Below, in pieces: positions 11,079 through 49,134 of a stretch of DNA of 64,000 nt (position 1 is the stretch's first letter; every line of letters begins with the position of its first letter). The stretch covers positions 56,074-120,073 of the forward strand of contig NZ_JAGYIM010000017.1 in NCBI RefSeq assembly GCF_018402695.1. Reading direction: 5' to 3'. The translations under genes and the position numbers were made by a program. This DNA comes from Arsukibacterium sp. (GTDB lineage: Bacteria > Pseudomonadota > Gammaproteobacteria > Enterobacterales > Alteromonadaceae). Under the pieces are notes generated by a model. The model did not search any database. It was not told where the DNA came from and saw nothing but the letters and a program-made list of their open reading frames with translations.

Positions 11079-11095
11079 AAATTGTCGACATAAAT
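11077..11095. promoter_or_regulatory. candidate GntR operator 1 (ATTGTCGACAT)
   Basis: The module CATAAATTGTCGACA..ATGCGCC is repeated at 11148-11167 and contains a GT..AC palindrome. Confidence 0.4.
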
Positions 11096-11147
11096 AATTT
11101 ATGCGCCCTTTTTATGCTTCTTAATGACCAGTGTCAAGCCTTGAAAG

Positions 11148-11167
11148 CATAAATTGTCGACAATATG
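11148..11167. promoter_or_regulatory. candidate GntR operator 2 (perfect palindrome ATTGTCGACAAT)
   Basis: 12-bp perfect palindrome at 11153-11164, ~70 nt upstream of the regulator's start. Confidence 0.45.
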
Positions 11168-11540
11168 CGCCTAAAGTAGTAGACAGGCTAGCAACCAAGA
11201 TGGCATAGCCGCTGCTGCTGCCTCAGTTAAATTACGTTGAGTAAAATTATTTTTTAGACTTTTTTATTATTAACAAATTAACAATCTATACAAATGTCTT
11301 ATAAAAAACATTTGCACCCAAATAAGGACAAAGGCTGCAATAACGCCATGCTGCGGCACAAAACAGGGGATAAGCTGGGTATAACCTGAGCGGAAACGGT
11401 GGGTAACTTTGCCAGAAAACAGAATTAAGGACCTGACAGCAACAGGAAAAAATGAATTAGCTTTACTACACTTGCCTTTACCTTATTTGCAACACTTTTT
11501 CGATAGCGCACGGCTCATTCCCTATGAGCCATTCCCCTAG

Positions 11541-11578
11541 GCCCAGAACAATTCGGATTGGTTCTGGGCTTCTTTTAT
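11541..11578 (+). terminator. strong orphan intrinsic terminator (plus strand)
   Basis: GCCCAGAACAAT-tcgg-ATTGTTCTGGGC is a 12-bp perfect stem followed by TTCTTTTAT. It is preceded by a second hairpin, GGCTCAT-tccct-ATGAGCC. There is no plus-strand ORF upstream. Confidence 0.65.
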
Positions 11579-11644
11579 CTGCAACTTCAAATAATTGTGA
11601 CAGCCAAGCCAGAATTCAGCGTAATGCTGAATTAAAGCCAAGGG

Positions 11645-17744: not shown

Positions 17745-17871
17745 CTTTTCTTCCTTTTTCTCATATAAATCGCAACAATTCGTGCAATTTTGTGTGGCGC
17801 TAGTTTATGCGTAAGCTGCAACTGTTGCAAGCATGCTTACCAGCATTTTTTGCTGGTCAAACCTGCTTTGC

Positions 17872-18618
17872 TTACAGCATATACATCCCGCCGTTAACGT
17901 GAATTGTTTCACCGGTAATATAGGCTGCCGGTGCCGAGACTAAAAAAGCGACTGTCGCTGCAATTTCTTCTGGCTGGCCCAGCCGGTTAGCCGGAACCTG
18001 AGAAAATATTGCTTCTTTTTGCTCGTCAGACAGCTCTTTAGTCATATCTGTGTCAATAAATCCCGGCGCTACAGCGTTAACCGTAATACCGCGTGAGGCC
18101 ACTTCACGCGCCAAAGACTTAGTAAAACCCAGCACGCCAGCTTTGGCCGCTGCATAATTGGTCTGACCTGCATTACCCATTGAGCCAACCACAGAGCCGA
18201 TAGTGACAATGCGACCATAACGTTTTTTCATCATGCTACGCAAGACCGCTTTACTCAGCCGGAATACCGATGTCAGGTTAGTCTGAATAATGTCAAACCA
18301 CTCATCATCTTTCATCCGCATCAATAAATTGTCGCGGGTAATACCCGCATTATTAATCAAAATATCAATTTCGCCAAACTGGTTTTTAATTTCAGTTAAA
18401 CATTGTTCAATTGAATCGGCATCAGTTACGTTCAGTACCAGGCCCTGGCCCTTATCTGCCAGATAAGCTGAAATAGCCGCAGCGCCTTTCTCTGTTGTTG
18501 CGGTGCCGATAACTTTGGCACCCAATGCCGCCAATTGCTCAGCTATCGCGCGGCCAATACCACGACTGGCGCCGGTTACCAGGGCAACTTTGCCGTCTAA
18601 TGTGAGTAAGTTTGTCAT
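17872..18618 (-). CDS. fabG: 3-oxoacyl-ACP reductase
   Basis: SDR with TGASRGIG and YAAAK motifs, in fab cluster context. Confidence 0.95.
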   Translation of the reverse strand: MTNLLTLDGKVALVTGASRGIGRAIAEQLAALGAKVIGTATTEKGAAAISAYLADKGQGLVLNVTDADSIEQCLTEIKNQFGEIDILINNAGITRDNLLMRMKDDEWFDIIQTNLTSVFRLSKAVLRSMMKKRYGRIVTIGSVVGSMGNAGQTNYAAAKAGVLGFTKSLAREVASRGITVNAVAPGFIDTDMTKELSDEQKEAIFSQVPANRLGQPEEIAATVAFLVSAPAAYITGETIHVNGGMYML

Positions 18619-18620
18619 CG

Positions 18621-19562
18621 TTATTCCTGTGTTAGCTGGGTTAATGCAGACTGTAACGATGCCTGATCATTAACTGAACTGCTATTAAGATTTTTATCAA
18701 TGCGTTTTATCAGGCCACTGAGCACTTTGCCGGCGCCCAGCTCAATCACGTCAGTGACGCCATTGCTTGCCAGCCACTCAATGGTTTCAGTCCAGCGCAC
18801 CGGGCTGTATAACTGGCGGACCAGGGCATCTTTTATTGCCGCACTATCGATAGCAATACTGACATCAACGTTATTTACTACCGGTAATTGCGGTGAATTA
18901 AAGTTCAGCGCCGCTAAGTCGGTAGACAACTGCTCAGCGGCCGGGCGCATCAGCGCACAATGCGACGGTACACTGACCGGCAGTGGCAAAGCCCGCTTAG
19001 CCCCCGCTGCTTTACATAATTCCCCGGCCCGCTCGACTGCCGCCTTATGTCCGGCAATAACGACCTGACCGGGTGAGTTGTAATTTACCGGCGCCACGAC
19101 TTCGCCCTGCGCCGCTTCTGCACAGGCTTTGGCAATCAGCGCGTCGTCAAGACCAATGATTGCTGACATGCCCCCTACTCCGGCAGGCACCGCCTGCTGC
19201 ATATATTGACCACGTTGCTCAACCAGTTTTACCGCTGCGCCCAGACTCAGCACATCAGCACACACCAGCGCAGAATACTCTCCCAATGAGTGCCCTGCAA
19301 AATAAGCGGGGGTCGCACCGCCTTGTTGCTGCCATAAGCGCCAGATAGCCACAGAAGCCGTTAATAACGCCGGTTGAGTTCGCTGTGTTTCGTTTAAATC
19401 AGCTTCCGGGCCGTTAGCAACTAATGCCCATAAATCGTAACCCAGCGCGGCAGAGGCCTCAGCAAAGGTGGTTTTAACGATGTCGTGCTGATATAAGTCA
19501 CTTAGCATACCAACACTTTGTGAACCCTGTCCGGGAAAGACGATTGCAAGTTTTTGAGTCAT
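18621..19562 (-). CDS. fabD: malonyl-CoA:ACP transacylase
   Basis: FPGQGSQ and GHSLGEYSAL motifs. Confidence 0.95.
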   Translation of the reverse strand: MTQKLAIVFPGQGSQSVGMLSDLYQHDIVKTTFAEASAALGYDLWALVANGPEADLNETQRTQPALLTASVAIWRLWQQQGGATPAYFAGHSLGEYSALVCADVLSLGAAVKLVEQRGQYMQQAVPAGVGGMSAIIGLDDALIAKACAEAAQGEVVAPVNYNSPGQVVIAGHKAAVERAGELCKAAGAKRALPLPVSVPSHCALMRPAAEQLSTDLAALNFNSPQLPVVNNVDVSIAIDSAAIKDALVRQLYSPVRWTETIEWLASNGVTDVIELGAGKVLSGLIKRIDKNLNSSSVNDQASLQSALTQLTQE

Positions 19563-19623
19563 TTTTTGTCCTGCACTTTTAACTTATAGCTTTTAAAAAT
19601 AGCGTAAAATTAATGCTGTATTA

Positions 19624-20583
19624 TTAGTAACGTACCAGGGCTGAAGCCCAGGCAAAACCGCCACCAAAAGCTTCCAGTAGTAAGGTCTGGCCCCGTTTAA
19701 TCCGGCCATCCCGGATAGCTTCATCCAGCGCGGTGGGAACAGTTGCAGCAGAGGTATTGCCATAACGGTCAAGATTAATCACCACCTGGTCCATCGACAT
19801 ATCCAGTTTACGGGCTACCGCAGAAATAATGCGTAAATTAGCCTGATGCGGCACCAGCCAGTCAATTTCTGACTTATCCATATTATTGGCACTAAGGGTT
19901 TGCTCGACGACCTGGGATAGTTTAGTGACGGCCACTTTAAAGACGTCGTTACCTTTCATACTGCCCCAGGAATTGTGTACCGAGTTTTCATCACCGCGAA
20001 TTGGGTTATCGACGTACAATAATTCTGAGTATTTACCGTCAGCATGGATATGAGTAGATAAAATACCGGGCTGCTCTGACGCTTCCAGTAAAACGGCACC
20101 GGCGGCATCCCCGAATAAGATCACCATGGAACGGTCTTCCGGACTGACTAATTGCGACAGGCAATCTGAACCAATCACCAGAATACGTTTAGCGATACCG
20201 GTTTTAATATACTGATCTGCCACACTTAAGCCATAACAAAAACCGGCGCAGGCAGCGGCAATATCAAAGGCAGGGATGGCTGGAATGGCTAATTCGCGCT
20301 GAATTTCACACGCGGCGCTTGGCAGCGCGCGCGAGGCACTGGTGGTAGCACAGATAATCATATCGATGCTGTTCTTATCTATACCCGCTGCGTCAATAGC
20401 TTGCAGCGCCGCCTGAGCGCCCATAGTCGCAACAGATTCGTCAGCGCCGATAATCCGTCGCTCTTTAATGCCGGTTCGCTCTATAATCCATTCGTCGGTG
20501 GTTTCCACCATGGTTTCCAAGTCAGAGTTGGTGCGAACCTGAGACGGGAAGTAACTCCCGGTGCCAATAATGCGTGAGTACAT
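19624..20583 (-). CDS. fabH: 3-oxoacyl-ACP synthase III
   Basis: KAS III family, 319 aa, in fab cluster context. Confidence 0.95.
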
Positions 20584-20589
20584 GCGAAC

Positions 20590-21630
20590 CTATGCTTTAT
20601 CTATTAATACGTGTTCCAGCCGATCTTTAATCTTGGCAGGCACCTGGCGTTCTACCTCGCGCACTGCTTGTCGGATGGCACTTAAAAATGCGTCTTTTGT
20701 CGCATTTCCGTGACTTTTCACTACAATTCCGCGCAATCCTATCAGACTTGCCCCGTTATAGTGGTCGGGGTTCACCCCCTGATAAAGACTTTTTATAAAA
20801 GGTTTCAGTAACCAGCCAAAAAACTGGGCACTGACTTTCTGGCGTAAACTGGTTTCAAACCGGCGTAATATCAGCTTGGCAACCCCTTCACAGGTTTTCA
20901 GTGCAACGTTGCCGACAAAACCATCGCACACAATCACATCAGCTTTCCCGGAAAAAATATCATCGCCTTCAATATAACCAATGTAATTAATGTCGTTACA
21001 GCTGGTCAGTAACTGCGAGGCACGCTTAATCTGATCCGAGCCTTTAATTTCCTCTTCGCCCATGTTCAGCAACGCAACTTTCGGGTAGCGAATGCCGACG
21101 ACTTCTTCAGCCATTACCGCACCCATAACTGCAAACTGGAACAAGGTGTCAGCATCACAATTAACGGTAGCGCCTAAATCCAGCATATACACCGGATTAC
21201 CTTTGCAACTGGGTAGCCCGCTGATCAGCGCCGGTCGTTCTACCCCGTTCAGCATTTTCAGCACATAATGGGCCATGGCAATTAAGGCGCCGGTATTGCC
21301 GGCACTGACACAGGCCTGAACCTGCTCCTGCTCAACCAGGTCCAGAGCCCGGCGCATAGATGACTCGCGTTTATTGCGCAGGGCAACAGAAGGCTTATCG
21401 GCCATACCAACATCATTATTGCTGGCAACCAGGCTGAGCTGCGGGTGTGGATAGCTATTATGAAAACGTAACTGCTGCTGCAACATGTCAATGTCGCCAC
21501 ACAACACAAGGTTTAATTGGGGGTATTCGCTAATCGCTGCCAGGGCGGCAGGAATAGTAGTAAGGGGGCCATGGTCGCCCCCCATCATATCTAAAGCAAG
21601 CTTAATCTTGATTGGCTGCACCAGGTGCAT
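20590..21630 (-). CDS. plsX: phosphate acyltransferase PlsX
   Basis: ..LALDMMGGDHGP.. N-terminal motif, in rpmF-plsX-fabH synteny. Confidence 0.9.
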   Translation of the reverse strand: MHLVQPIKIKLALDMMGGDHGPLTTIPAALAAISEYPQLNLVLCGDIDMLQQQLRFHNSYPHPQLSLVASNNDVGMADKPSVALRNKRESSMRRALDLVEQEQVQACVSAGNTGALIAMAHYVLKMLNGVERPALISGLPSCKGNPVYMLDLGATVNCDADTLFQFAVMGAVMAEEVVGIRYPKVALLNMGEEEIKGSDQIKRASQLLTSCNDINYIGYIEGDDIFSGKADVIVCDGFVGNVALKTCEGVAKLILRRFETSLRQKVSAQFFGWLLKPFIKSLYQGVNPDHYNGASLIGLRGIVVKSHGNATKDAFLSAIRQAVREVERQVPAKIKDRLEHVLIDKA

Positions 21631-21636
21631 CCGGGC

Positions 21637-21801
21637 TTACTTTACTTTACGGCCTTTATAGAAACCATCGGCAGTAATGTGGTGACGACGATGCGTTTCA
21701 CCAGTTGTTGAGTCAACTGACAGCGTAGGGCCAGTTAACGCATCGTGAGAACGGCGCATGTCACGACGTGCACGAGATTTTTTGTTTTGCTGAACAGCCA
21801 T
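21637..21801 (-). CDS. rpmF: 50S ribosomal protein L32 (54 aa; below the ORF-track cutoff)
   Basis: My translation of the minus strand is [61 protein letters not shown] lies upstream. Confidence 0.9.
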
Positions 21802-21816
21802 TGTTTTTCTCCTAAA

Positions 21817-22344
21817 TCACTTTTTTTTCAGTTCTTGCAGTATGGCAAAGGGGTTTGGTTTTTCTGGTTCTGGCCCTATGTCTCCAAAGCTCATTGCCTC
21901 AGCACTGATATTACAGTCTGCTGCATCATGCATTGGAAACAGTGGTAATGCCAGAATAAGTTCATCCTCAACCAACTGCCGTAAATTTATTTCGCCATGC
22001 TCGTCGCGCACAATAACATCGTAACGCTCTGGTATTAATGCCAGCGCGGCGTCATCATCCCCTTTCACCGGGGTATAGACAAATTCACTGCCTAACGCCA
22101 GTTGCATGGGCTCGCCACAACGCTCACAGCGTACAGTAACCTCAGAAGCCGCCTCGCCGTTTAACACTGCAAGGCCTTGCTCATCTGTTCCGCACTCAAT
22201 TCGTACTGCTACTTCGCCTTGTTTTTCAACCAGACTCTCTGTTAACCGGGTTAGATTTTGCAGCGGCACTATGCCGTCGAAAATCGACCGCTTTTGAGCA
22301 GCTTTCACCGGGTCCAGCGTAACAGGTATTTTCACTTTTTGCAT
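21817..22344 (-). CDS. yceD: YceD (DUF177) 23S rRNA accumulation protein
   Basis: 175-aa acidic protein with a CxxC..C pattern, immediately upstream of rpmF. Confidence 0.85.
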   Translation of the reverse strand: MQKVKIPVTLDPVKAAQKRSIFDGIVPLQNLTRLTESLVEKQGEVAVRIECGTDEQGLAVLNGEAASEVTVRCERCGEPMQLALGSEFVYTPVKGDDDAALALIPERYDVIVRDEHGEINLRQLVEDELILALPLFPMHDAADCNISAEAMSFGDIGPEPEKPNPFAILQELKKK

Positions 22345-22493
22345 AAGGCGCGCATCATATAGAACCCACCCCCTGCTGTCAAAGGGTTCCCACAGTTTTT
22401 TCAGCTTTTTCTTGGCTGAAAAAAAACCATGCTTTGAGAAAACCCGGTTCAGTTGGCATAATAGCTTTTTCTCAGCCCTTCTCTGAGGTTTTA

Positions 22494-23099
22494 ATGTCTC
22501 AATCTCCTCTGCCTAAGCTGTATCTCGCATCCACCTCACCCTATCGCAAGCAATTACTGGCAAAATTAACCCCGCATTTTATTGCCGTCAAACCGCAAAC
22601 GGATGAAACACCATTGCCGGATGAAGATGCAACCGCGCTGGTACGCCGGCTGGCAAGGGCTAAAGCACTGGCTGTTGCGGCGACATTGGATGAAGGGCTG
22701 GTCATTGGCGCTGATCAGGTAGCCGTATTTAATGGTCAAATTATTGGTAAGCCACATAGCCGCGCAAATGCTGTTGCGCAGTTAAGTCAGTTTAGTGGTC
22801 ACAGTGTCACTTTTTTAACCGGCCTGGCCCTGCTGAACGCCGCAACCGGCAACTGCCAGCTAACCGTAGAACCTTTTACAGTCTGTTTCAGAAAACTGAC
22901 TGATGCAGAAATTATTGCCTATGTAGAGCGGGAGCAACCGCTGGATTGCGCCGGCAGCTTTAAAAGTGAAGGGCTTGGGATCAGCTTGTTCAGCGCTCTG
23001 CGTGGTGATGACCCAAACAGTCTGATTGGTCTGCCCCTGATAAGATTACTGCAGTTACTCCGTAATGAAGACGTTAATCTGTTAACCGCCGGCGGCTAG
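22494..23099 (+). CDS. maf: Maf-like nucleoside triphosphate pyrophosphatase (YceF-type)
   Basis: ..[14 protein letters not shown].. Maf family. Start at the internal ATG at 22494; the ORF maximum starts at 22434. Confidence 0.85.
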
Positions 23100-23740
23100 A
23101 TATGAGGCAGCAACGCCGGCAAATCATCAATGATGGCTTTTGGCTGAAACTGCCGTAAAACCTCGGCACCATGCACACCATGGGTCACCCCTACCCGCGG
23201 CATCGCAATCGCCTGCGCCATTTTCATATCATGGCTGGTATCACCGACCATAATCGCATTGGCAGGAGGCACCCCCAGTTGCTGGCTTATTTGTAACAGC
23301 ATATCCGGGTGCGGTTTTGACTGGGCTTCATCAGCACAGCGGCTGGTCACAAAATAGTGGCCAAGCCCGGTTTGGGCAAACATTCTGTCCAGGCCCTTTC
23401 TGGCTTTACCGGTCGCCACCGCCAGCAGAATATTTTGCTCAGCCAGGGTTTTCAGCACCTGCTCAGCGCCGTTAAATAATGGTGTAGGGGTAGTGTCGTA
23501 AATAGTGTAATGATCACGATAGTGCTCAAACAACTGGCTGCGCTGGGTCTGGTTAGTGTCCGGAAACAATACCGCAAAGGCCGGGTCAAGACTTAACCCG
23601 ATAATCTGCTTTACTGCGTGACTGCTTGGCACCACTAAACCGGTTAAGCCTGCTGCGGCCTGCATTGATGACACAATGCGGCCAATCGAGTCCATTACCG
23701 TGCCGTCCCAATCAAAAATAACTAATTTTACTTCTGTCAT
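23096..23740 (-). CDS. HAD-IA family hydrolase (phosphoglycolate phosphatase-like)
   Basis: Contains the VIFDWDGTV (DxDGT) motif and a ..VGDTSHD.. motif. Confidence 0.75.
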
Positions 23741-23756
23741 ATAGCGCTTACCTAAA

Positions 23757-24710
23757 CTACTTTCGGGTTAATCTGGTCAGGGCGTTTTCCAGTTGAGAAT
23801 CAAGTGGCGCGTCAATTCGCATCGTAGTCAGGCTGTTCGGGTGGGTGAAACTCAGGCTTTTGGCATGCAAAAACAACCGGTTTAACCCCAGCTGGTTCAT
23901 TTGACCGCTGAAAGCGTTATCGCCATATTTATCATCACAGGCAATAGGATGACCTTTACAAGCAGTATGCACCCGGATTTGATGGGTACGACCTGTAACC
24001 GGAAATGCCTCAACTAAGGTGCCCTGCTGATAACGCTGCAGGATCCGAAAGCGGGTTTCCGACGGCTTACCATTTATTTCATCAACTTTTACTACCCGCT
24101 CACCTGATTGCAGGGTGTTTTTACGCAGCGGCTCAGTAACTTTACGCACTTTGTTATCCCAATCCCCACTGACCAGCGCCCAGTATTTCTTTTCAACCGT
24201 TTTATCCCGTAGTTGCGCATGCAAATGAGTCAGTACTGAGCGCTTCTTGGCAATTAATAAACAGCCTGAGGTATCCCGATCCAGCCGGTGCACCAGCTCC
24301 AGCAATTTAGCCTGGGGACGTAACGCCCGCATTGCTTCAATAACCCCAAACTGTAAGCCGCTACCGCCATGTACAGCCATACCAGAGGGTTTGTTCAGCA
24401 CAATAAGATCATTGTCTTCAAACAGGATATGGCTTTCCAGTTCGCTGACCAGGCTTAACTTAACTGACACTCTATCCGGCTCTGCCGCGACGGTTAACGG
24501 TGGCACCCTTACGATATCGGCCTGTTGCAGCTTATACTCAGGTTTGACCCGCTTTTTATTAACTCGCACCTCACCTTTTCGTAAAACCCGGTAAATAACA
24601 CTTTTTGGCACACCCCGCAGCCGGGCAAGTAAAAAATTGTCTATTCGCTGACCGATAAAATCATCTTCAATTTCAATCATTTGTATCGGTAATTTGATTT
24701 CATCCGCCAT
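23757..24710 (-). CDS. rluC: 23S rRNA pseudouridine synthase RluC
   Basis: S4 domain plus the RluA-family HRLDRDTSG motif. It is divergent from rne, as in enterics. Confidence 0.9.
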   Translation of the reverse strand: MADEIKLPIQMIEIEDDFIGQRIDNFLLARLRGVPKSVIYRVLRKGEVRVNKKRVKPEYKLQQADIVRVPPLTVAAEPDRVSVKLSLVSELESHILFEDNDLIVLNKPSGMAVHGGSGLQFGVIEAMRALRPQAKLLELVHRLDRDTSGCLLIAKKRSVLTHLHAQLRDKTVEKKYWALVSGDWDNKVRKVTEPLRKNTLQSGERVVKVDEINGKPSETRFRILQRYQQGTLVEAFPVTGRTHQIRVHTACKGHPIACDDKYGDNAFSGQMNQLGLNRLFLHAKSLSFTHPNSLTTMRIDAPLDSQLENALTRLTRK

Positions 24711-25194
24711 GTGCTTTAAATACTCTGCTAAAATTACTTTTAAGTTGCTATCCGATGCACATTAGTGGGATAATCATCCGGCTAATTATGCCAAAACGTG
24801 GCAATTAGGGCGCTCAAAGTGACATAAGAGAAATTGTGCGGCACCGTCAGGGGATGTGATCATACCGAATTCGTGGTGAAAACCAACGTTTTTTATAGCC
24901 CCGGCGTTTAAATAACGCCATTTGCCTGAGGTAATGTTGCGTAATCTGTTACCAACAACGGCAAAACACAGTTTCCGGTTACCTGAGCAACAAGAATAAT
25001 TTGCTATAACGCAACGCCGAACGGCGGTGTGTTTCAGATTCAAACGAAAACAGATAACTATACTGTAAATAGTGACAATTTGGTTCCCTCAGGTATCCCA
25101 GTCGGGAGATTGCATTATTTGATGCCTGATAACATCTGAACACCCAGGTGCCCAGTAAGGTTGCGTTGTGGCTGCATAACAGAGTCACCCAACA
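24711..25194 (+). promoter_or_regulatory. rluC-rne divergent promoter region and long rne 5' leader
   Basis: 484-nt non-coding spacer upstream of rne. Long structured rne leaders used for autoregulation are established in E. coli. The structure was not modelled here. Confidence 0.4.
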
Positions 25195-27432
25195 ATGAAA
25201 AGAATGTTAATAAACGCAACGCAGGAAGAAGAAATCCGCGTTGCTTTGGTCGATGGCCAAAAACTTTACGATCTGGATATAGAAAGCCCGGGTCATGAAC
25301 AGAAAAAAGCCAATATTTACAAAGGCAAAATCACCCGGGTCGAACCCAGTCTTGAAGCCGCTTTTGTTGACTACGGCGCTGACCGCCATGGTTTTTTACC
25401 GCTGAAAGAGATTTCCCGCGAATATTTCCCGAAAGGTTACAGCTTCGATGGCCGCCCCAATATTAAAGAGGTGGTTAAAGAAGGTCAGGAAGTGATTATT
25501 CAGATTGATAAAGAAGAACGCGGCCAGAAAGGCGCGGCGTTAACCACCTTTATCAGTTTAGCCGGCTCTTACCTGGTATTAATGCCGAACAACCCACGGG
25601 CGGGTGGCATTTCCCGCCGGATTGAGGGTGATGAACGTCAGGATCTGAAAGACTCTCTGGGCCAGTTAGATATGCCGGATGGTATGGGACTTATCGTTCG
25701 TACTGCTGGCGTAGGCAAATCTTATGAAGAGCTGGATTACGATTTAAAAGCCTTGCTCAAGCATTGGTCTGCTATCACCGAAGAGGCCGCAAAGCGCCCC
25801 TCCCCGTTCTTAATTCATCAGGAAAGTAATGTGGTATTTCGCGCCATCCGCGATTACCTGCGCCGCGATGTTGGCGAAATTCTGATTGATAATCCGAAAA
25901 TTTTTGAAGAAGCCAAAGTTTATATTCAGCAGTTCCGGCCTGATTTTGCCCACCGGGTAAAAATGTATGACGGTGAAGTACCGCTGTTTATGCATTACCA
26001 GATTGAAACCCAGATTGAAACGGCCTTTCGCCGTGAAGTGCGCTTACCGTCAGGTGGCTCTATTGTCATTGATGGCACTGAAGCACTGACCGCTATTGAT
26101 ATCAACTCGTCAAAGGCCACCAAAGGTGGTGATATTGAAGAAACGGCCTTTAATACCAATTTGGAAGCGGCGGATGAAATTGCCCGCCAGCTGCGTTTAC
26201 GCGATTTGGGCGGGTTAATTGTTATCGACTTTATTGATATGACGCCGGTACGGCATCAGCGTGAGGTGGAAAACCGCTTAAAAGATGCAGTAAAACACGA
26301 CCGTGCCCGGGTTCAAATTGGCCGCATCTCACGCTTTGGCTTGCTGGAAATGTCGCGGCAACGGCTGCGTCCTTCGCTGGGTGAGTCTGCCGGACATGTC
26401 TGTCCGCGCTGTCATGGTCGCGGTACTATTCGTGGAACCGAAAGCTCTGCTTTATCGATTCTGCGCTTAATTGAAGAAGAAGCCATTAAAGACAACACCA
26501 GCCAGATCCATGCGCAGGTGCCTATCTCGGTTGCCACCTATTTAATGAACGAAAAGCGCGAATCGGTGCGACGCATTGAAAAACGCAATGGTATCCAGAT
26601 TTTCATTATTCCTAATGAACACCTGGAAACCCCTAACTATGAAGTGTCACGGATCCGGATTGATGAAGAGCTGGATGACGTTAGCTACAACATGGTTAAA
26701 GCACCTGAGGTTATCAGTAAGCCTTATCAGCCCAGTGTTGAAGTGGTTAAAGAAAAACCAGCAGTATCGGCAATAAATATTGCTCAGTCGGCCCCGGCCC
26801 GCACAGCGCCGGCAGCGGCATCAGCAGCACCGGCAACTGCAGCTCAACCTGATTTATTCAGCAAACTGAGTAAATGGTTTAAAAGTTTGATTACCGGCAG
26901 TGAGCCGAAAACTGAGCACAGTAAAACACCAAGCCAGCAGCATACTGCCCGCAAAGAAGAGGCCAAGCCTGGCCGGGATGGCAACCGCACCGGCCGTGAT
27001 AGCAGCCGCGACAATAACCGCGATGGCAGCCGTGCAGATAGCAAGAACGACAATAATCGTCGGCGTAACAGTAAACGCCGTCGTCCGGATCAAGCCGACC
27101 GGGCGGTAGAAAAAGACGAGACCATCAGCAATGCCACAGCAGCGCCGGTAAAACAAGAACGTCCGCCACGTCCTGCTCAGGATCGCAATCGGCAGCAAGA
27201 CAGTCGCAAGCCACAGACCGAACGTGTTGCTGAAGCGGCAGAGCAAGCCGAAGAGCCGAAAGAGCGCAGTGTCGCCGCAGAACGCCGTCAGCGTCGCAAT
27301 ATGCGTAAATCGGTACGCCTGAATCAGGCTGCAGATAATGCAAACACTGATGCTGCTGCTACCCAGCCTGTGGCCGCCGAGCAGGTGCCGGCTCCTCGTT
27401 CCTACCGGCTTTCTCAGAAGCGAAGAAGGTGA
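25195..27432 (+). CDS. rne: ribonuclease E, open for only 745 codons (catalytic N-terminal half, membrane-targeting helix, Arg-rich segments), ending at tandem TGA TGA
   Basis: [14 protein letters not shown]1 domain..CPRCHGRG Zn-link. An amphipathic [16 protein letters not shown] helix is followed by R/D/N-rich and RRQRRNMRK segments. This is shorter than the ~1000+ aa typical of gammaproteobacterial RNase E. Confidence 0.85.
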
Positions 27433-28146
27433 TGAAGAAGGGATTCACTGAGGAAACTGAAAAGCGGCATTTTTATGAAAGGGAGTGAGAAATGAAGCCG
27501 CGAACCGCACGAGCAGCACCACGAAAGTCAGACAGAGAGGAGATGAAGTGTGTTTATTTGAAATACATGAACTAAACTTATGAGTATGAAGATTTACAAC
27601 ACAACTTTACAAACTAAAAAAAGCCTTTTAATGAGATCTTATTCTGTAGTTCTCATAATGAAAACCAAAGCAGTTCATGAGACAATAAAGCGCAACGAAC
27701 TCATGAACGCAAACTAAATATCAAACTATTTCGCGAGTGAGCTGAAGAGATCAACGAGGCTGACCAAAATATTGCAGCTGACAATGAACGTTAACAATGA
27801 TCGCTGAAACAAGCGTAATTAAGCTGAAACATGAACGACAGCGCTACGCAAAAACTATAACAACAGACAAGTACGAACATACGCGCCGTGATGCGATATG
27901 TGTGAAACTAGAACATAAAGAATGAAGGTGATGAAAATTAAAAGTAAATGCGCTGTTCAAAGCGAAATAGTGAACGATTTTGCGCGAGACAGCCCAAACG
28001 ACCGAGTTTTATGATAAACACGGATCAAACAGCTGACTGATTACCAGCGAAAGCTAAACCAATGCCTTTCCAAAGACGATCGGAAGCGATATCGACCATC
28101 GGTAAGAACCAGTTGTATCGCTGCGCGTGACTGTTTTGTATTCTTA
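27433..28146 (+). other. 714-nt A-rich, low-GC tract with no ORF of 60 aa or more in any frame, occupying the place of the RNase E distal scaffold-coding region
   Basis: The six-frame track shows no ORF between 27433 and ~28040. I counted GC as 16/60 for 27601-27660 and 22/60 for 27661-27720. The tract length is an exact multiple of 3. Confidence 0.5.
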
Positions 28147-28419
28147 TTGCACGCGACAAGGCTGCGATTCTGCGAAGCAGCGCCAGCGACTAAAGCTGCG
28201 CCGGCAAAAACAGGTAGCCGCTTTGGTAACATGGTGGTAGCTGATATGGCGAAACCCGAGACCAGTAATACTGAGCCTGCAACTGCCAGCGTAACACCAG
28301 CAGCTGCAGCCAGTGCCGCAGAGCGCCCAGCAGTAAGCAGCTCAAACCGGCCTGCCGGTTCAGCGTTTGCCAGACAGGCCGCCAGTGCACCGATGACCAA
28401 ACCAGAAAAAGCGGAATAA
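28147..28419 (+). pseudogene. RNase E C-terminal remnant, in frame with rne (frame open from 28018)
   Basis: ..AAPATKAAPAK..AKPETSNTEPATASVTPAAAASAAERPA..ASAPMTKPEKAE has A/P/T/E-rich RNase E tail-like composition. It is in the same frame as 25195 (offset 2952 = 3 x 984) and is followed directly by a terminator. Confidence 0.5.
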
Positions 28420-28447
28420 AAAAGCCCCCGGTTTCGGGGGCGGTTCT
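28420..28447 (+). terminator. terminator hairpin after the rne region
   Basis: GCCCCCG-gttt-CGGGGGC hairpin. Confidence 0.55.
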
Positions 28448-28463
28448 GTAAATTTTGCTTCGT

Positions 28464-28494
28464 AAAAAAACCAGCTTAACCGCTGGTTTTTTTT
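28464..28494. terminator. bidirectional terminator between rne and the porin gene
   Basis: AAAAAAA-CCAGC-ttaacc-GCTGG-TTTTTTTT. Confidence 0.6.
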
Positions 28495-28496
28495 AT

Positions 28497-29678
28497 TTAG
28501 AAATCGTACTTGGCACTAAACTGCAAGCGGTGCATATCGCCATCCAGGCCTGATTCTACCTCACGGTTAGCAAATTTATACTCAGCGCCAACCATCAGTT
28601 TTTTATTTACCTGATACAGTAAATTTGCACTATAGCTATGGGTATTCTTATTGGCGCTCATGCCTGTTAGCGCAGTATCATTGTCGATATCAAGCACTGA
28701 GTACAATACTGTTGACCGCCATTGCGCATTCCACAAATGACGGTAAGCCACAGAATACGACGTAGCATCAATAGTTTCTAAACCGGCATCTGGTCCGCTG
28801 CCTGTAAGCACTGCACCATTGGTGGTATTCAAACCAACATAACGGCCTAATCCTTTACCGGTATTAAAGGTAAAACGCAAATCGTTCATATTGGCAAAGT
28901 TAATTTTACCACTTACCGACAAGCCGTAAGATGTCACATCATCGTCGTAATTCACCCCACTGTAATCGCCGTCAATACTTAGTTGGCGTAACAGCCCGGC
29001 TACTCTTAAAACCCCCCAGTCAGTTGTTAAACTATAACTGGCTGTAAAATCGGGCGTTGCGTTGTCATCGGTCGTTATACGCGCCCCACCACCAAACGGC
29101 GTAATAGTGCTTTCCGGATTTTCCACAGCAAAAGCAAAATTACCATGAGTGTAACGAATCTGCGCCTGACGGATAAAGACAGCTGCATCCGGGTTGCCGA
29201 CAAAATCGAGCGTATCAGGTAAGGATGCAAGATCCATAAAATTTGACCAGGTCTGGCCAAGTGTCCAGTTTTTATACTTTATGAACGCATGACGCATAAC
29301 CGGACTGTAACCATTGGTAGTCCGTTCATCGTTACCATTATTGCTGGTCATAAAATCAAATTCGATATGTCCGGTTAACTTTTCGTCGTTACCTAAATCA
29401 GTAGAAGTAGCGAAGAAGAAACGTGACTGACGGGCGTGCATATCAAAACGGCTGGTACTATCACCGCCTATTGGTGTCAGCGACGGCACATAGAAATCGC
29501 GACCTAGAGCAATCATTTCACCGTCAGAGTCGGTAGCCATAGCATCAAGCTTAATGAAACCGCCATAGGTGACGTTAGTATCACCAATACTAAAGCCTGT
29601 ATTAGCCTGGACACTGCCGGCAGATAACGCCAGCGCGATAGCCGCCGTCAGGGCGCTTAGGGTCTTTCTCTGTCTCAT
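28497..29678 (-). CDS. outer-membrane porin (beta-barrel; DcaP-like family is a guess)
   Basis: Signal peptide ..ALSAGSVQA-NTG, alternating beta-strand pattern, and C-terminal ..FSAKYDF ending in Phe. Confidence 0.75.
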   Translation of the reverse strand: MRQRKTLSALTAAIALALSAGSVQANTGFSIGDTNVTYGGFIKLDAMATDSDGEMIALGRDFYVPSLTPIGGDSTSRFDMHARQSRFFFATSTDLGNDEKLTGHIEFDFMTSNNGNDERTTNGYSPVMRHAFIKYKNWTLGQTWSNFMDLASLPDTLDFVGNPDAAVFIRQAQIRYTHGNFAFAVENPESTITPFGGGARITTDDNATPDFTASYSLTTDWGVLRVAGLLRQLSIDGDYSGVNYDDDVTSYGLSVSGKINFANMNDLRFTFNTGKGLGRYVGLNTTNGAVLTGSGPDAGLETIDATSYSVAYRHLWNAQWRSTVLYSVLDIDNDTALTGMSANKNTHSYSANLLYQVNKKLMVGAEYKFANREVESGLDGDMHRLQFSAKYDF

Positions 29679-29909
29679 CTGAAGTTCTCCATCTTTATTA
29701 TTGTAATAACATCTGGTTTGCGTTATTTGGATTTTGACGGTACAACTTTGGGTGACAGTCTGTAACTTCGCAATTAGCCTTTAGTCGCAGTTAGCGCAAT
29801 GGCTGATGCTTGGCTAGACTATGGTCTAATTTCATTTGTAGTGTCATTTCGATAGAAAGTAACCAGTTATAAATTCTTATATTAATACTGCAGATCCACA
29901 GGGGAAACT

Positions 29910-31865
29910 ATGTCACATCCAAGCTTTTATCCGGTGAGTGAGACGGCCAAAGCCAGAACACATATTACCGATGCCATTTATCAGGAAATGTATCGCCAAT
30001 CGGTTGAACAACCTGAGCAATTCTGGGCTGAACAGGGTAAGCGTCTTGATTGGATCACGCCGTACAGCAAGATTAAAGACACCAGTTTTGAATTAGGTAA
30101 AGTTAACGTTAACTGGTACAGCGATGGCCTCTTGAACGCCAGTTACAATTGTCTTGACCGTCATCTGGCAAGCCGCGCCGACCAGGTCGCTTTTTACTGG
30201 GAAGGTGATGAACCGGGTGTGCAAAAAACAGTGACCTACCAGCAGTTGTATGATCAGGTATGTGCGCTGGCCAACGGTATGAAGTCACTGGGAATTAAAA
30301 AAGGTGATCGGGTAACAATTTATCTGCCGATGATCCCGGAAGCTGCGGTTGCCCTGCTGGCCTGTGCCAGAATTGGTGCCGTGCACTCAGTGGTATTTGC
30401 CGGTTTCTCTCCCGACGCCCTTGGTAACAGAATTGTCGATTGCGATTCCAAATTGGTCATTACTTCAGATCAGGCGCTGCGTGGCAACAGAGCAACCCAT
30501 TTAAAAGACAATACTGATGCAGCTCTGGGTCACCTTGGCAGCGACAGTCCGGTCCAAAATGTTATCGTAGTAAAACACGTTGGCAAAAACATCGACTTTC
30601 ATCCAAGCCGGGATGTCTGGTACCACGAGCTGGTCGCCAGCCAGAGTAAAACCTGTGAACCAGAACCAATGAACGCCGAAGACCCGCTGTTTATTCTTTA
30701 CACTTCGGGTTCTACCGGCAAGCCAAAGGGTGTTTTGCATACTACCGGCGGTTATCTGGTTTATGCCGCAATGACCCATCAGTATGTATTTGATTATCAT
30801 GATGGTGATATTTACTGGTGTGCAGCAGACGTTGGCTGGGTTACCGGCCACAGTTATATTATTTACGGTCCGCTGGCCAATGGTGCCAGCAGCGTAATGT
30901 TTGAAGGCGTTCCAACCTACCCCAGCGTTAAACGTATTGCCCAGATAGTTGACAAGTACCAGGTGAACATTCTTTATACCGCCCCGACGGCAATACGGGC
31001 GTTAATGGCCCATGGCGACAGCCCGGTAGAGGGCGCAAACTTAAGCTCACTGAAAATACTGGGGAGTGTGGGCGAACCAATAAACCCGGAAGCCTGGAAC
31101 TGGTATTACGAGAAAATTGGCAGCAGCCAGTGCCCCATTGTGGATACCTGGTGGCAAACCGAAACCGGTGGCATTTTAATTACGCCATTACCGGGTGCCA
31201 CAGCATTAAAGCCAGGTTCTGCTACCCGGCCATTCTTCGGGGTTAAACCGGCGATTGTCGACAATGAAGGCAAGCAACTGGACGGTGTTGCTGAGGGCAA
31301 TCTGGTGATCCTTGACAGCTGGCCTGGCCAGATGCGCACCCTGTACGGTGATCACGACAGGTTCGAACAAACCTACTTCAGTACCTATGCCGGCATGTAT
31401 TTTACTGGTGATGGGGCCAGACGCGATGAAGACGGCTACTACTGGCTTACCGGCCGGGTCGACGATGTCCTGAATATCTCCGGCCACCGTTTGGGCACTG
31501 CAGAAATTGAAAGCTGTCTGGTCGCCCACGATGCCATTGCCGAAGCCGCCGTAGTCGGTTACCCGCATGATATTAAAGGCCAGGGCATTTATGTTTATGT
31601 CACACCCAGAGTTGGGGTTGAGCCCAGTGATGAGCTGACTAAAGCAATCAGAGCCTGGGTGCGGGAAGAAATATCGCCGATAGCCACCCCGGATTTGGTG
31701 CAATGGGCGCCTTCAGGCTTACCGAAAACCCGCTCTGGTAAGATTATGCGGCGCATTTTGCGTAAAATTGCGGCGAATGAACATGACCAGTTAGGTGATA
31801 TTTCTACTCTGGCAGACCCATCAGTAGTTGAAATTTTAGTGAATAACCGTTTAAATCGTAAGTAA
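29910..31865 (+). CDS. acs: acetyl-CoA synthetase
   Basis: 651 aa with [11 protein letters not shown] and ..[12 protein letters not shown].. motifs. Confidence 0.97.
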
Positions 31866-31904
31866 GGCAAAAACAGCGTAAGCTTACGTTGTTCCAGTTG
31901 CAGC

Positions 31905-31930
31905 AAAAAGGCCGCTATTGCGGCCTTTAT
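31905..31930 (+). terminator. terminator after acs
   Basis: GGCCGC-tatt-GCGGCC followed by TTTAT. Confidence 0.6.
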
Positions 31931-31966
31931 AATAATTACAATTCTGGACCTTACCGGAGGATTTAT

Positions 31967-32641
31967 ATGGCAAAGCTTATCGTTGCTGACGACCACCCGT
32001 TGTTTCGCAATGCACTGATTAACGCGATAAGCAGTACCTTTGTCACTAAGGCGACCATCGAAACCGACAGTTTCGATACCACCTGCACTGCATTGGAGCA
32101 ACACCCCGACACAGATTTACTATTGCTTGATTTACATATGCCTGGCAATTGTGGTTTTCTGGGCTTAATCCAGCTTCGTAAAAACTACCCCAGCCTGCCG
32201 ATAGTGGTGATATCGGCCAGTGAAGAACTGGACGTGATCAGACGGGTTATTGCGTTTGGTGCATCGGCCTATATTCCTAAATCAGCCAATCCGGTAGATA
32301 TCAGTACGGCACTTAATGCCGTATTGGCCGGAGAGCTCTGGGTACCAGCCAGCTTGCACAAAGCAGTGTTTCAGGAACAAAGTGCCGGCGAGGATTTAGA
32401 TTTAGCAGCCAAAGTAGCCCAACTTACCCAGCAACAGTATAAAGTTCTGTATTACTTAACCGAAGGCTGGCTGAATAAACAAATCGCCTACGACTTACAT
32501 ATTTCTGAAGCCACAGTTAAAGCACATATAACCGCTATTTTTCGTAAACTTGGCTGTACCAACCGTACCCAGGTGGTTATTCAGGCACAGCGCCTAACCT
32601 TAGAGCCGCCGGTGGACAGAGCCATGGCCCAGCAGCACTGA
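31967..32641 (+). CDS. crbR: NarL/LuxR-family response regulator (CrbR/ErdR-like acetate-switch regulator)
   Basis: REC domain (MAKLIVADDHPLF..DLLLLDLHMPG) plus a LuxR HTH. A GGAGG SD precedes the ATG at 31967. The gene is adjacent to acs and to a CrbS-type kinase. Confidence 0.8.
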   Translation: MAKLIVADDHPLFRNALINAISSTFVTKATIETDSFDTTCTALEQHPDTDLLLLDLHMPGNCGFLGLIQLRKNYPSLPIVVISASEELDVIRRVIAFGASAYIPKSANPVDISTALNAVLAGELWVPASLHKAVFQEQSAGEDLDLAAKVAQLTQQQYKVLYYLTEGWLNKQIAYDLHISEATVKAHITAIFRKLGCTNRTQVVIQAQRLTLEPPVDRAMAQQH

Positions 32642-32664
32642 GTCAGCCGTTGACTATGGCTGCA

Positions 32665-35600
32665 TTAGTCAGTGCCGGGCATCTGTTTACTGCGCTTAAG
32701 CATTTTAAAGTGGTTCAGGCTGGCTCTGAGCGCGCCTGGCTTAATTGGTTTGGCCAGATACATCAGGCCTGCGGCCTTAGCCTGCGCCGCTAAATCTGCC
32801 TGAGGTGAAGCCGAAACCAGAATTCCGCCGACATCACCCCACAAGGGTTTAATTTGCTGATATAAGTCCAGGCCATTGGCATGCTGGCCCAACTGATAGT
32901 CTATTAACATAACGTCGGGTGCCGCCGCAGTGCGGGCGTAATCCAGCAGTTCCTGCTCATCATAAAAACAACTGACTTCTGCAATTTGCCACTGCTCCAG
33001 CAATACCTTTAACGCGGCCAGGTTTGCTGCATCATCATCGATACACACCACCGTTAAGCCAGGCAAAGGCCGTTGTTGCGCCTGCTGCCCAGGCAACGGC
33101 AGCACAGCACGCTGTCGCTGTTGTGCCAGCGGCAGGCTGATGCTGAATAATGTGCCCTTACCGGGCCAGGAGCGGACAGTTAACGGATGGTCCAGCAGTT
33201 TTGCCATCCGGTGCACTACCCCCAAACCCAGACCTACCCCCTGCTGACCTTTAGCTGTGGCATCTATCCGGTAAAAATCTTCAAAAATCCGTTCTAAATC
33301 ATAGGGAGAAATGCCGGGCCCGGTATCCCACACCTGAACAATAACCCGGTCTTTCCGCTTACGGCAACCGAGTAAAATTCGCCCTTTTACCGTATATTTA
33401 ATCGCGTTTGATAACAGATTCTGCAAAATGCGCCGCAGATAAGTGGAGTCTGTCAGGACATTATACTTTGCCATTCGTACGTTTAACGCCAGGCCTTTCT
33501 GACTGGCGACCAGACTGTACTCGTCTGCCAGCTGCGACAACAACTCTTGCAGCGCTACGGGTCGCACATCGGGTTGCAACTTACCATCATCCAGTTTGGC
33601 AATTTCCAGCAAGGTTGAAATCAGCTCTTCTGAGGCTTTTAACGAGTTATCCAGTTGACTGAGGATCGCTTTTTGCTGCTGCTTTTCCTGAGCGCCACTC
33701 AGGGCAGCGGTAAATAACCTGGCAGCATTTAATGGCTGCAGAATATCGTGACTGGCCAGTGCCAGAAACCGGGTTTTGGAGGCATTAGCCGCTTCCGCTT
33801 CTGCTTTTGCCTGTAAAAGTTGCTGCTCAGTTGCACGTCGCCGCCCTACTTCGGCCAGCAGTTCGTGGTTTATATCTGAAATAGTTTGCGTTCGTTCCTG
33901 TACCCGCTCTTCCAGATGTTGCTTCGCCTCTGCCAGGGCCTGTACTGCTTTTACATGCTCTGAAATATCAGTAAAGCTGGTAACAAAACCACCACCCGGA
34001 ATGGGGTTCCCGCGCATTTCAATGACCCGGCCATCAGGGCGTACCCGTTGAAACACATGGGCAGTGCCTTTTTGCATATGGGCAATGCGCTTTTCTACAT
34101 GCTCATCCGGATCGCCAGGGCCACAAAGCCCGCGCTCTGCATTTAGTCTGACAATATCAGCAACCGGCCGGCCCACTCTGACCATTCCTTCAGGGTAACT
34201 GAACATTTCCAGATACGCTTTATTCCAGGCAACCAGTTTCAGCTCCCGGTCGACCACACTGACCCCCTGACTTAAATGTTCCAGGGTAGAGAACAATATT
34301 TTCCGGGAAAACTGAATAGCCTGGGTCGTATCATCAAATAAGGTGACAACATCTTCAAAACCAAGCTGCCGCCCCTCCAGCACCGCATTAACCATAGCCG
34401 AAGCGGATGACGCACCAATAACCCCGGCCAGTTCCCGCTCGACATGCTCCACCAGACCAACTGTTGGTAAGTCGTCCAGTTGCAGATTGAGTTTGTGTTT
34501 ACGACCAAACTCTGCCAGACATTCTATCGCCCGGCCGGTACCAACAAAGCGCTCCAGTAATATTTTTAAATCCGCATTGTGGATACGGATCCGCCGGGCT
34601 GGCGTGTCCTGATGGTCAATTGGCAGGTTAGGCTTAACAAAAGCCACGGCCTGTAACCGGTCCTGCAGGTTGACGCTGCTGAGCAGCGATACCACCGTAT
34701 AAGCCAGAATATTAAAACCGAGTGACAGCAGGACACCATGGCTTAAACTATCCAAAGTAATACCAAACATGCCGGTCGGTGACAGCCACTGGATCCCCAG
34801 TAACCCCTGCTGCATAATATCGCTGTTAATCACTCCGGCATTCACCAGTTGCGGCAACATTAAGGTATAAAACCAGAGCACCAGGCCTAAACTCAAACCG
34901 GCATATACGCCCCAGGCGTTGCCACGACGCCAGTACAAACCACCCAGTACCGCCGGTGCCAGTTGGATAGCTAATGCAAATGCCAGTAAACCGGTTTCTG
35001 CCAGTTCATAATTACGAGCAAAAATCTGATAGTAAAAATAGGACAAGCCCATCACCAGCAAAATCATCGCCCGGCGTACCAGCAAAATCAGTAAACTGTA
35101 ATCATGCGGCATACCTTTGCGCCGGTTAGACTGCAACAAGCTTGGCATGACAACATCGTTACTTATCATGGTGCTAAGAGCCAGGGTGGCGATAATAATC
35201 ATCGAGGTTCCGGCTGAGAAACCACCAATGAATACCAGCACACTTAAGCTGTTCCAGCCAGACTGCGCCGGGATCAGCAGGACAAAACTGTCAGCCTGGG
35301 ACAGCATGGAAGGAAACATCTGCATACCTGCGACCGCCAGCGGTACGACAACGATAGTGACCAGCAGTAAATAACCGGAAAACCAGCGTCTGGCATGACG
35401 CAGGTGGTGATGAGACACGTTTTCAACAAAGGCTACATGAAACTGGCGGGGCAACAAAAAAACAGCGGCCATTGCCAACAGGGTTTTGGTAATAAACTCA
35501 ACAATACCGGACGTGCTGTAATTGGCCTGCTGACTACTGGCATGGGCTGCAAAGGCCCGCAGCACGTTTTGGTCTTTATCCAGAATAAACACATAGACGG

Positions 35601-48531: not shown

Positions 48532-48826
48532 AGCTTTTACTCCATATTTCTTATGTCAGCTGGTACCGCCACTATTAGCAACCAGACAAGTTACCCGCAT
48601 GGGGTTTGCCAAAGTGTAATTACCAATTGGCCCCGTTGCTCAATTAAACTATGATAAAACGATGATATTTAATAAGTTCTCTAATACCTGTAGGCATAGC
48701 TGCACTATAGTGGTGGTAGTATTTACTAGCAGTTAGTTATTTGCCTTTTTTATCATTTAAATAACATACTGATTTGCTTTAGTTAAATTATTAGCTAGAC
48801 TGGTGTGGATAACAAAGGAGAACGTT

Positions 48827-49021
48827 ATGAATAAAATTATTGGTTTAGCGTTATTAATTGTGGGTGCGGTACTACTTTATTTTGGTTACAACGCATATAA
48901 CTCTGCAGCATCTGAAGTGTCAGAGTTTGTAACAGGCAGCCCGACAGACAATGCCGTCTGGTACCTGGTTGCCGGTGGCCTGGCTGCCGTAATTGGTATT
49001 GGTGTGCTGCTTAAAAAATAA
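48827..49021 (+). CDS. DUF3185-like small membrane protein (64 aa)
   Basis: An AAGGAG SD lies 6 nt upstream of the ATG at 48827. Two TM helices: MNKIIGLALLIVGAVLLYFGY..AVIGIGVLLKK. Confidence 0.6.
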   Translation: MNKIIGLALLIVGAVLLYFGYNAYNSAASEVSEFVTGSPTDNAVWYLVAGGLAAVIGIGVLLKK

Positions 49022-49075
49022 GCCATTACACTTGCAGTTAAAATTACCAGTTAAAAATTGCCTTATATAATTACA

Positions 49076-49110
49076 AAGGCCACTTAAATTAGTTTAAGTG
49101 GCCTTTGTTT
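49076..49110. terminator. bidirectional terminator (small membrane gene / glnS)
   Basis: AAAGGCCACTTAAA-ttag-TTTAAGTGGCCTTT 14-bp stem. Confidence 0.6.
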
Positions 49111-49134
49111 AAGACTGATAACGAGCAGTAATAT

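Follow-up and report, generated by a model that had tools for sequence, protein, structure and literature searches.

The rne gene of Arsukibacterium sp. is interrupted, in the 64,000-nucleotide stretch of DNA analyzed here (the window; NCBI RefSeq assembly GCF_018402695.1, contig NZ_JAGYIM010000017.1, positions 56,074 to 120,073), by a random-like, A-rich tract of 782 nt that stands where the relatives of this bacterium encode the distal scaffold of RNase E. With a probability of roughly 60%, the tract is erroneous sequence from long reads that polishing left in place in a hybrid metagenome-assembled genome (MAG), and is probably not in the organism, in which case the real gene is probably an ordinary full-length rne of approximately 1,075 codons; the interruption is most likely not a biological feature. 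This reading is favored because the relatives are intact, because the tract has the fitting length, the frame and the purine content of the missing region but no homology to it and the statistics of noise, because its flanks are pristine, and because of the provenance of the assembly. The random-like statistics, the fit of length and frame, the flanks, the provenance and the breaks of the short-read contigs are direct results, from which we infer the long-read origin of the tract and its lack of Illumina support.

Position and sequence of the tract

The first-pass annotation, which was made from the sequence alone, had the rne open reading frame (ORF) end at tandem TGA TGA codons after 745 codons, and both the sequence and the ORF list confirm it. 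The RNase E-like C-terminal tail that it recognized downstream is equally sound: the tail ORF at 28147-28419 (90 aa) shares the frame of rne, which is open from 28018 (after TGATAA), and its last 82 codons are the genuine in-frame C-terminus of RNase E by homology to congeners, several of which have the block SAAERPAVSSSNRPAGSAFARQAASAPMTKPEKAE in identical form. Recomputation of the whole span, from the start of rne to the end of the tail, gives exactly the 1075 codons first stated ((28419-25195+1)/3). The in-frame stops that were reported between the two parts are real, although they number 13 beyond the ORF's own stop within 27433-28146 and not about 14, and the anomaly itself, first placed at 27433-28146, is slightly wider by homology to the congeners (27396-28177).

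The idea that related genomes might carry the same 745-aa RNase E followed by a homologous tract found no example. All nine of the other Arsukibacterium species retrieved have an uninterrupted rne (1061-1109 aa) in the same gene neighborhood, and the other listed homologues (at most 92% identity) are without exception uninterrupted RNase E of 979-1165 aa (119 of 119). In the protein collection the 742- and 745-aa forms come only from the window's own contig, and no fragment from this sample turns up in the 90% clusters of the ten nearest homologues. A DNA profile of the nine congeners (nhmmer, full sensitivity) matches the window as far as approximately 27395 and, after a gap without any match on either strand or in the reversed sequence, resumes at 28178 and continues to the stop codon; the tract is absent from all nine congeners and from metagenomic relatives. 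From RKSVRL to RFGNMV there are 304 codons in the window versus 301-330 in the congeners, and the frame is kept. Alignment with the rne of relatives, which had been proposed as a check, thus has the tract standing in for about 260 codons, and disfavors both an insertion and a degraded coding sequence. The approximately 260 aa that the congeners encode at this place include the AR2 block PRSRNRRSPRHLRAAGQKRKK, exact in eight of the nine, and a KPGRPRGKRK block; the AR2 block is absent from the window in every frame, strand and reduced alphabet.

Both flanks of the tract look fully functional and under strong purifying selection, to judge from codon comparisons. Within aa 1-560, none of the 533 columns that are invariant in the nine congeners is altered in the window, and within aa 561-735 only two such columns are. 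Between the last 38 codons and those of the four closest congeners compared there are 14-18 synonymous and 1-3 non-synonymous changes, corresponding to a synonymous divergence (dS) of 0.76-1.3, a non-synonymous divergence (dN) of 0.012-0.036 and a dN/dS of about 0.01-0.05. Since the tail lies downstream of the stop and is nevertheless constrained, any real disruption of the gene must be extremely recent.

This bears on the proposal that the original scaffold region decayed by frameshifts and substitutions after an early stop. The tract does have the right place, length and frame for such a remnant, its purine fraction and GG depletion resemble those of the congener region, and a few noise-level, roughly collinear tblastn matches occur in one frame. 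Profiles at maximum sensitivity nevertheless find nothing. Against the congener C-terminal domain (CTD), blastn of the tract with a word size of 7 detects no homology, global alignment of the tract forward, reversed, complemented and reverse-complemented detects no relatedness, and tblastn returns noise-level matches only; a protein profile scores 1.8 bits on the six-frame translated tract (shuffles: 95th percentile 0.9, maximum 5.7), with matches that are not collinear. Scans in RY, MK and WS alphabets and for the AR2 and KPGR blocks find no remnant in the tract, and none of the 24 base permutations, their reversals or the 1-bit-shift decodings matches the congener CTD. Transition-collapsed profiles (G>A, C>T) score 113-209 bits on a control CTD with 35% simulated deamination and nothing on the tract, and k-mer sharing with the congener CTD (k = 6-10) is equal to that of dinucleotide shuffles. 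The dN/dS of the tail and its freedom from frameshifts exclude gradual decay, because the erasure of 782 nt would need far longer, and a long neutral period is incompatible with them. With no residual similarity, flanks under purifying selection and no relaxed constraint downstream, a decayed pseudogene segment is effectively refuted, and the probability left to it is very small indeed.

The statistics of the tract are close to those of random sequence. As first noted, no ORF of 60 aa or more exists in its six frames; the longest listed ORF is 45 aa and the longest stop-free run is 54 codons. Stops number 13, 24 and 16 in the three frames of the + strand versus 16 expected from base composition, and 9, 10 and 11 on the - strand versus 11.4-11.5 expected. 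The stop density is ordinary for the base composition of the tract, and it is the occurrence of such sequence within rne that is unusual. Codon-usage scores are negative in all frames and below those of the window's ordinary intergenic DNA, and Pfam finds no match on six stop-bridged frames. Sensitive blastn with the tract finds no match in the plasmid collection and, in the phage collection, a sole match of 39 nt at chance level (E = 0.8); neither JGI metagenome contigs nor the viral contigs of IMG/VR contain any of three exact oligomers of the tract (18 to 22 nt). No second copy lies within the 64-kb window, and a promoter and terminator scan of the tract is at chance level.

The description of the tract as compositionally foreign holds in part. 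The low GC is as first counted (16/60 at 27601-27660, with A = 23, and 22/60 at 27661-27720, with A = 30, the stated maximum), and the excess of ATGA is also real: its 17 copies in 27430-28015 exceed the 4.3 that base composition predicts and the 7.9 of a first-order Markov model, and its density of 13 per 500 nt compares with a window mean of 1.56 (sd 1.67) and a next highest value of 5. Because the reverse complement TCAT is not enriched, the bias is strand-specific. Many copies resemble gene starts (ATGAAA, ATGAAG, ATGAAC, ATGAGT), and a few follow GGAG-like motifs. The purine fraction, in contrast, is not foreign, being 0.595 in the tract and 0.587-0.602 in the corresponding missing region of the congeners, and GG is depleted in both. 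If the tract is base-calling noise, this equality of purine fraction and GG depletion in the absence of any shared sequence might be a signal-level property of the true sequence that leaked into the calls; if the tract is real, the equality is one more coincidence. The window's lowest GC (0.33 over 300 nt) lies elsewhere, in a 603-nt ORF-free gap (48532-49134) upstream of the gene at 49135-50799, which is T-rich rather than A-rich, has no ATGA excess and does not resemble the rne tract.

A functional or selfish element, such as a structured or Hfq-binding non-coding RNA, a removed intron or intervening sequence, or a small mobile element, could account for strand-asymmetric composition with enrichment of ATGA/UGAA, and the 12-nt sequence GAAGGTGATGAA is found twice, identical and in direct orientation, at 27425-27436 and 27924-27935, 499 nt apart. 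One copy of this repeat spans the TGATGA stop, 499 is not a multiple of 3, and in purine-rich sequence chance is a plausible source. The purine-rich non-coding RNA or (ARN)n-like 3' untranslated region suggested in the first pass finds no support: Rfam gives no match at E<=1, group I and II introns included, the predicted fold is no more stable than that of shuffles (z = -0.58), the longest ARN run is 3 versus a shuffle mean of 4.0, and the congeners lack the tract. A structured RNA, a group I or II intron and an Hfq-binding (ARN)n RNA were rejected on these Rfam, fold and ARN-run results. The tract likewise has no terminal inverted repeats, transposase, tandem repeats or meaningful dispersed repeats, and an insertion adds length rather than substituting for some 260 codons; an insertion sequence, a miniature inverted-repeat transposable element and an integron cassette were rejected in view of the chance-level direct and inverted short repeats, the single copy and the substituted length. 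An element of either kind is accordingly a most improbable origin.

Provenance of the assembly

The possibility of an assembly artefact, one of several explanations raised in the first pass, became the leading one once the provenance of the sequence had been traced. Short-read contigs were retrieved from Logan for SRA run SRR14300309 (Lake Shunet) via the exact proteins of two neighboring genes. They are 100% identical to the window over 17757-26244 and 28352-33321, and both end inside rne, one on each side of the tract (26244 and 28352). The left break falls on the 30-mer that begins a run (26215) exactly shared with other Arsukibacterium species, which accounts for the failure of the short reads to extend the assembly across rne. 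Judged by its sequence, this break is the putative signature of a graph branch from a co-occurring relative. In other metagenomes, too, contigs with a related rne often stop at the gene or just past it, and assemblies of metagenomes containing congeners seem to break there frequently.

SRR14300309 belongs to PRJNA721826, a study of Lake Shunet in which MAGs were built from Nanopore and Illumina reads by metaFlye with Pilon, MEGAHIT, quickmerge, binning, five more rounds of Pilon, and Flye and Unicycler with long-read bridges, and whose authors warn of ORF-corrupting errors in long-read assemblies (PMC8382752). Its MAG M30B15 represents a new Arsukibacterium species, with average nucleotide identity (ANI) of 87.3% to A. 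tuosuense and 84.3% to A. perlucidum, and comprises 4.02 Mb in 25 contigs with 49.4% GC and a CheckM strain heterogeneity of 81.8 (PMC8382752). The window matches these values, with 48.9% GC and approximately 85% identity to A. perlucidum. If the window is part of this MAG, its pipeline can leave stretches supported by long reads only. Random or junk stretches and "glitches" are recognized defects of Oxford Nanopore Technologies (ONT) reads (PMC6966772), and the tract has what is expected of noise, namely no selection, no homologue and the length of the true sequence, with the exception of its ATGA excess.

The predicted course of events is as follows. At 3.0 m in Lake Shunet, a co-occurring related Arsukibacterium would share short exact words with the rne of this species, so that the short-read graph would fragment. 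The path over the variable, low-complexity C-terminal region would then be supplied from a metaFlye/Flye long-read contig that served Unicycler as a bridge, in a stretch that carried unrecognizable base calls at roughly the true length. Illumina reads would be unable to align there, and Pilon would fix only the alignable flanks, leaving an island of noise. Gene callers would meet the stop at 27430 and report an RNase E of 742 or 745 aa, whereas the true gene would be a continuous ORF encoding ...EPRSRNRRSPRHLRAAGQKRKK...KPGRPRGKRK...

Several points weigh against an assembly error. Illumina support over 27396-28177 is presumed rather than shown to be absent, and we infer the identity of the window with M30B15 from the matching short-read contigs, taxonomy, ANI and GC. 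Pure noise of 780 nt is far larger than typical read glitches, and a decent long-read depth should not give a consensus of noise. The assembly is otherwise well polished, with no frameshifted genes elsewhere in the window. The strand-specific excess of ATGA and ATGAA fits no base-calling or polishing bias known to us. Look-ups found no short-read contig carrying the tract, but they demand an exact product, which could only be guessed, and are uninformative: neither the products of 745 and 742 aa, nor a partial product predicted for 26215-27432, nor the ORF of 45 aa is on record.

Foreign A-rich DNA, another proposal of the first pass, is conceivable as a length-matched replacement and not as an insertion. 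A real and very recent event in the dominant Lake Shunet strain would have replaced approximately 780 nt of the rne scaffold by non-coding A-rich DNA, leaving an 83-kDa RNase E that keeps its catalytic domain, anchor, AR1 and RhlB site and loses AR2 and the PNPase microdomain, with the tract and the stranded tail forming a long 3' untranslated region that extends to the normal terminator. The sequence does stand in a public assembly, annotated as a 742-aa protein; E. coli tolerates C-terminal truncations of RNase E, domain-deletion strains being on record (PMC10804669); the intact tail and pristine flanks suit a very recent event; and the good polish of the remainder of the window and the non-random ATGA excess speak against pure noise. 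Such a replacement nevertheless requires that length (304 codons, 301-330 in the congeners), frame and purine content all agree by coincidence, and it requires a donor without an open frame of more than 54 codons in six frames, a rarity in the DNA of bacteria or phages. Neither a donor nor anything similar appears in the collections searched, and the tract bears no hallmark of a mobile element; it is missing from the nine congeners and from the metagenomic relatives alike, and an allele with lost function would have to be the dominant one in the population. A genuine replacement, the main alternative, is therefore somewhat unlikely, and it is more doubtful still that the wild population of this meromictic lake recently swapped its distal RNase E scaffold for length-matched, in-frame, non-coding A-rich DNA. 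If it did, the result would be a natural knockout of the degradosome scaffold that costs the cell AR2 and PNPase recruitment but leaves membrane anchoring and the RhlB site in place, and an rne mRNA with an AUGA-rich 3' untranslated region of approximately 1 kb that is perhaps bound or cleaved by the RNA-decay machinery.

Features of rne and of the rest of the window

The coordinates of the features of rne are collected in Table 1. The 745-aa product has Pfam records PF00575, PF10150 and PF20833, so that the S1, RNase E/G catalytic and small domains are present; it has 92% identity to named RNase E, and the DNA is 85% identical to that of A. perlucidum as far as 27362. Of the parts that the first-pass annotation placed before the stop, the amphipathic membrane-targeting sequence (MTS) and an AR1-like segment are kept along with the catalytic half, and the Arg-rich segments are not all there, AR2 being lost. 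AR2 is the arginine-rich RNA-binding microdomain that lies at 796-814 in E. coli RNase E (...SPRHLR...). The congener counterpart of the MTS aligns with GLLSRFFGALKALFSG of E. coli (565-582; microdomain map in PMC4435900). A predicted RhlB site is kept as well, the congener segment that it matches aligning with RRKQRQLNQKVRYEQ of E. coli; the RhlB binding site (E. coli 719-731) is conserved in Alteromonadales and Enterobacterales (PMC4435900). The tail is the predicted C-terminal microdomain, placed where the PNPase site lies (aligned to the E. coli PBS, 1021-1061; PMC4435900), and this microdomain is not in the 745-aa polypeptide because its codons follow 14-15 in-frame stops.

Table 1. Coordinates of rne, the anomalous tract and adjoining features in the window
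Feature	Position	Strand	Basis or remark
rne 5' leader	24631-25194	+	intact, very highly conserved
rne ORF, 745 aa	25195-27432	+	ORF list; S1 and catalytic domains
Zn-link CPRCHGRG	26401-26424	+	inside rne ORF
Membrane-targeting sequence (MTS), aa 553-568	26851-26898	+	matches congener motif
AR1-like Arg-rich segment	from about 27052	+	alignment to E. coli microdomains
RhlB-site-like motif, aa 696-711	27280-27327	+	alignment to E. coli microdomains
Last codons resembling congener RNase E (AAEQVPAP), left edge of anomaly	27373-27396	+	nhmmer, tblastn
Non-homologous, random-like, A-rich tract, 782 nt	27396-28177	no strand	profile comparison with nine congeners
Tandem stops TGA TGA ending the annotated ORF, inside the anomalous tract	27430-27435	+	
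Stranded C-terminal tail in rne frame (…AAPAKTGSRFGNMVVADMAKPE…RPAGSAFARQAASAPMTKPEKAE)	28178-28419	+	nhmmer 239 bits, E = 9.6e-75
Terminator hairpins, two	28424-28441 and 28462-28492		between rne and convergent DcaP-like porin gene

Exact runs of at least 31 nt, common to most of the nine congeners, extend nearly unbroken over 24631-25206, and the rne leader is far better conserved than the coding sequence. It matches no Rfam family at E<=1, the enterobacterial rne 5' UTR element (5' untranslated region) included, and may be a divergent autoregulatory leader. At the other end of the gene, the arrangement of terminators between rne and the porin gene is the same in the congeners, and DNA homology to a congener locus runs on through 28600. 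The second hairpin, flanked by an A-run and a T-run, could terminate transcription in both directions; its weak, sub-threshold Rfam matches (STnc370, isrK, AgrB) reflect terminator shape only.

Elsewhere in the window, an overlapping antisense pair of small RNAs lies at 11440-11580 within a 566-nt ORF-free gap (11079-11644), with SdsR/RyeB on the + strand at 58 bits and SraC/RyeA on the - strand at 43.6 bits, both above the Rfam gathering scores. The intergenic stretch 29646-29924, bounded by the DcaP-like porin gene and a divergent gene for acetyl-CoA synthetase, contains exact congener matches of up to approximately 119 nt, which suggests a conserved regulatory region.

Significance and comparison with known systems

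If the tract is an assembly error, the public MAG and the protein databases derived from it contain a 742-aa "RNase E" with probably no real counterpart, and MAGs from hybrid assembly can hide kilobase-scale islands of noise in essential genes that are otherwise perfectly polished. Such islands could be screened for by the combination of orthologue-matching length and frame, zero homology, random stop density and pristine flanks. If the tract is real, this would be a rare natural gamma-proteobacterium that has just lost its distal degradosome scaffold, and it would permit a field test of how far AR2 and PNPase docking are dispensable.

The tract resembles bacterial pseudogene decay in having a premature stop followed by stops in every frame. 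Decay leaves graded homology and affects everything downstream, whereas here there is zero homology over 782 nt and the tail is conserved. The junk stretches of Nanopore reads and hybrid assemblies (PMC6966772, PMC8382752) are alike in several respects: a random-like tract of fitting length, with base-perfect short-read flanks, sits at a break of the short-read graph in a MAG made with metaFlye, Pilon and Unicycler. The residual errors of Nanopore sequence are usually scattered indels and substitutions, with glitches of tens of bases, so a 780-nt island of zero identity would be extreme.

Engineered C-terminal truncations of E. coli RNase E (PMC10804669; map in PMC4435900) would be comparable to the window if the interruption were real, with the catalytic half and anchor kept and the distal sites lost, and by analogy with the E. 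coli scaffold mutants RNase E activity would continue without recruitment of PNPase. Those mutants are laboratory deletions, whereas here coding DNA is replaced, the codons of the PNPase site survive beyond the tract, and the allele itself probably does not exist. The closest comparison is with the full-length RNase E of Arsukibacterium (A. perlucidum WP_026349300.1, 1079 aa; Arsukibacterium sp. WP_372625167.1, 1106 aa), which is 92% identical over the first ~735 aa. The congeners share with the window the synteny of rluC, rne and the convergent DcaP-like porin gene, as well as matching MTS, HBS-like motif and C-terminal tail, and they differ from it in having an unbroken middle scaffold of approximately 260 aa, with AR2 and KPGRPRGKRK, where the window has 782 nt of unrelated sequence.

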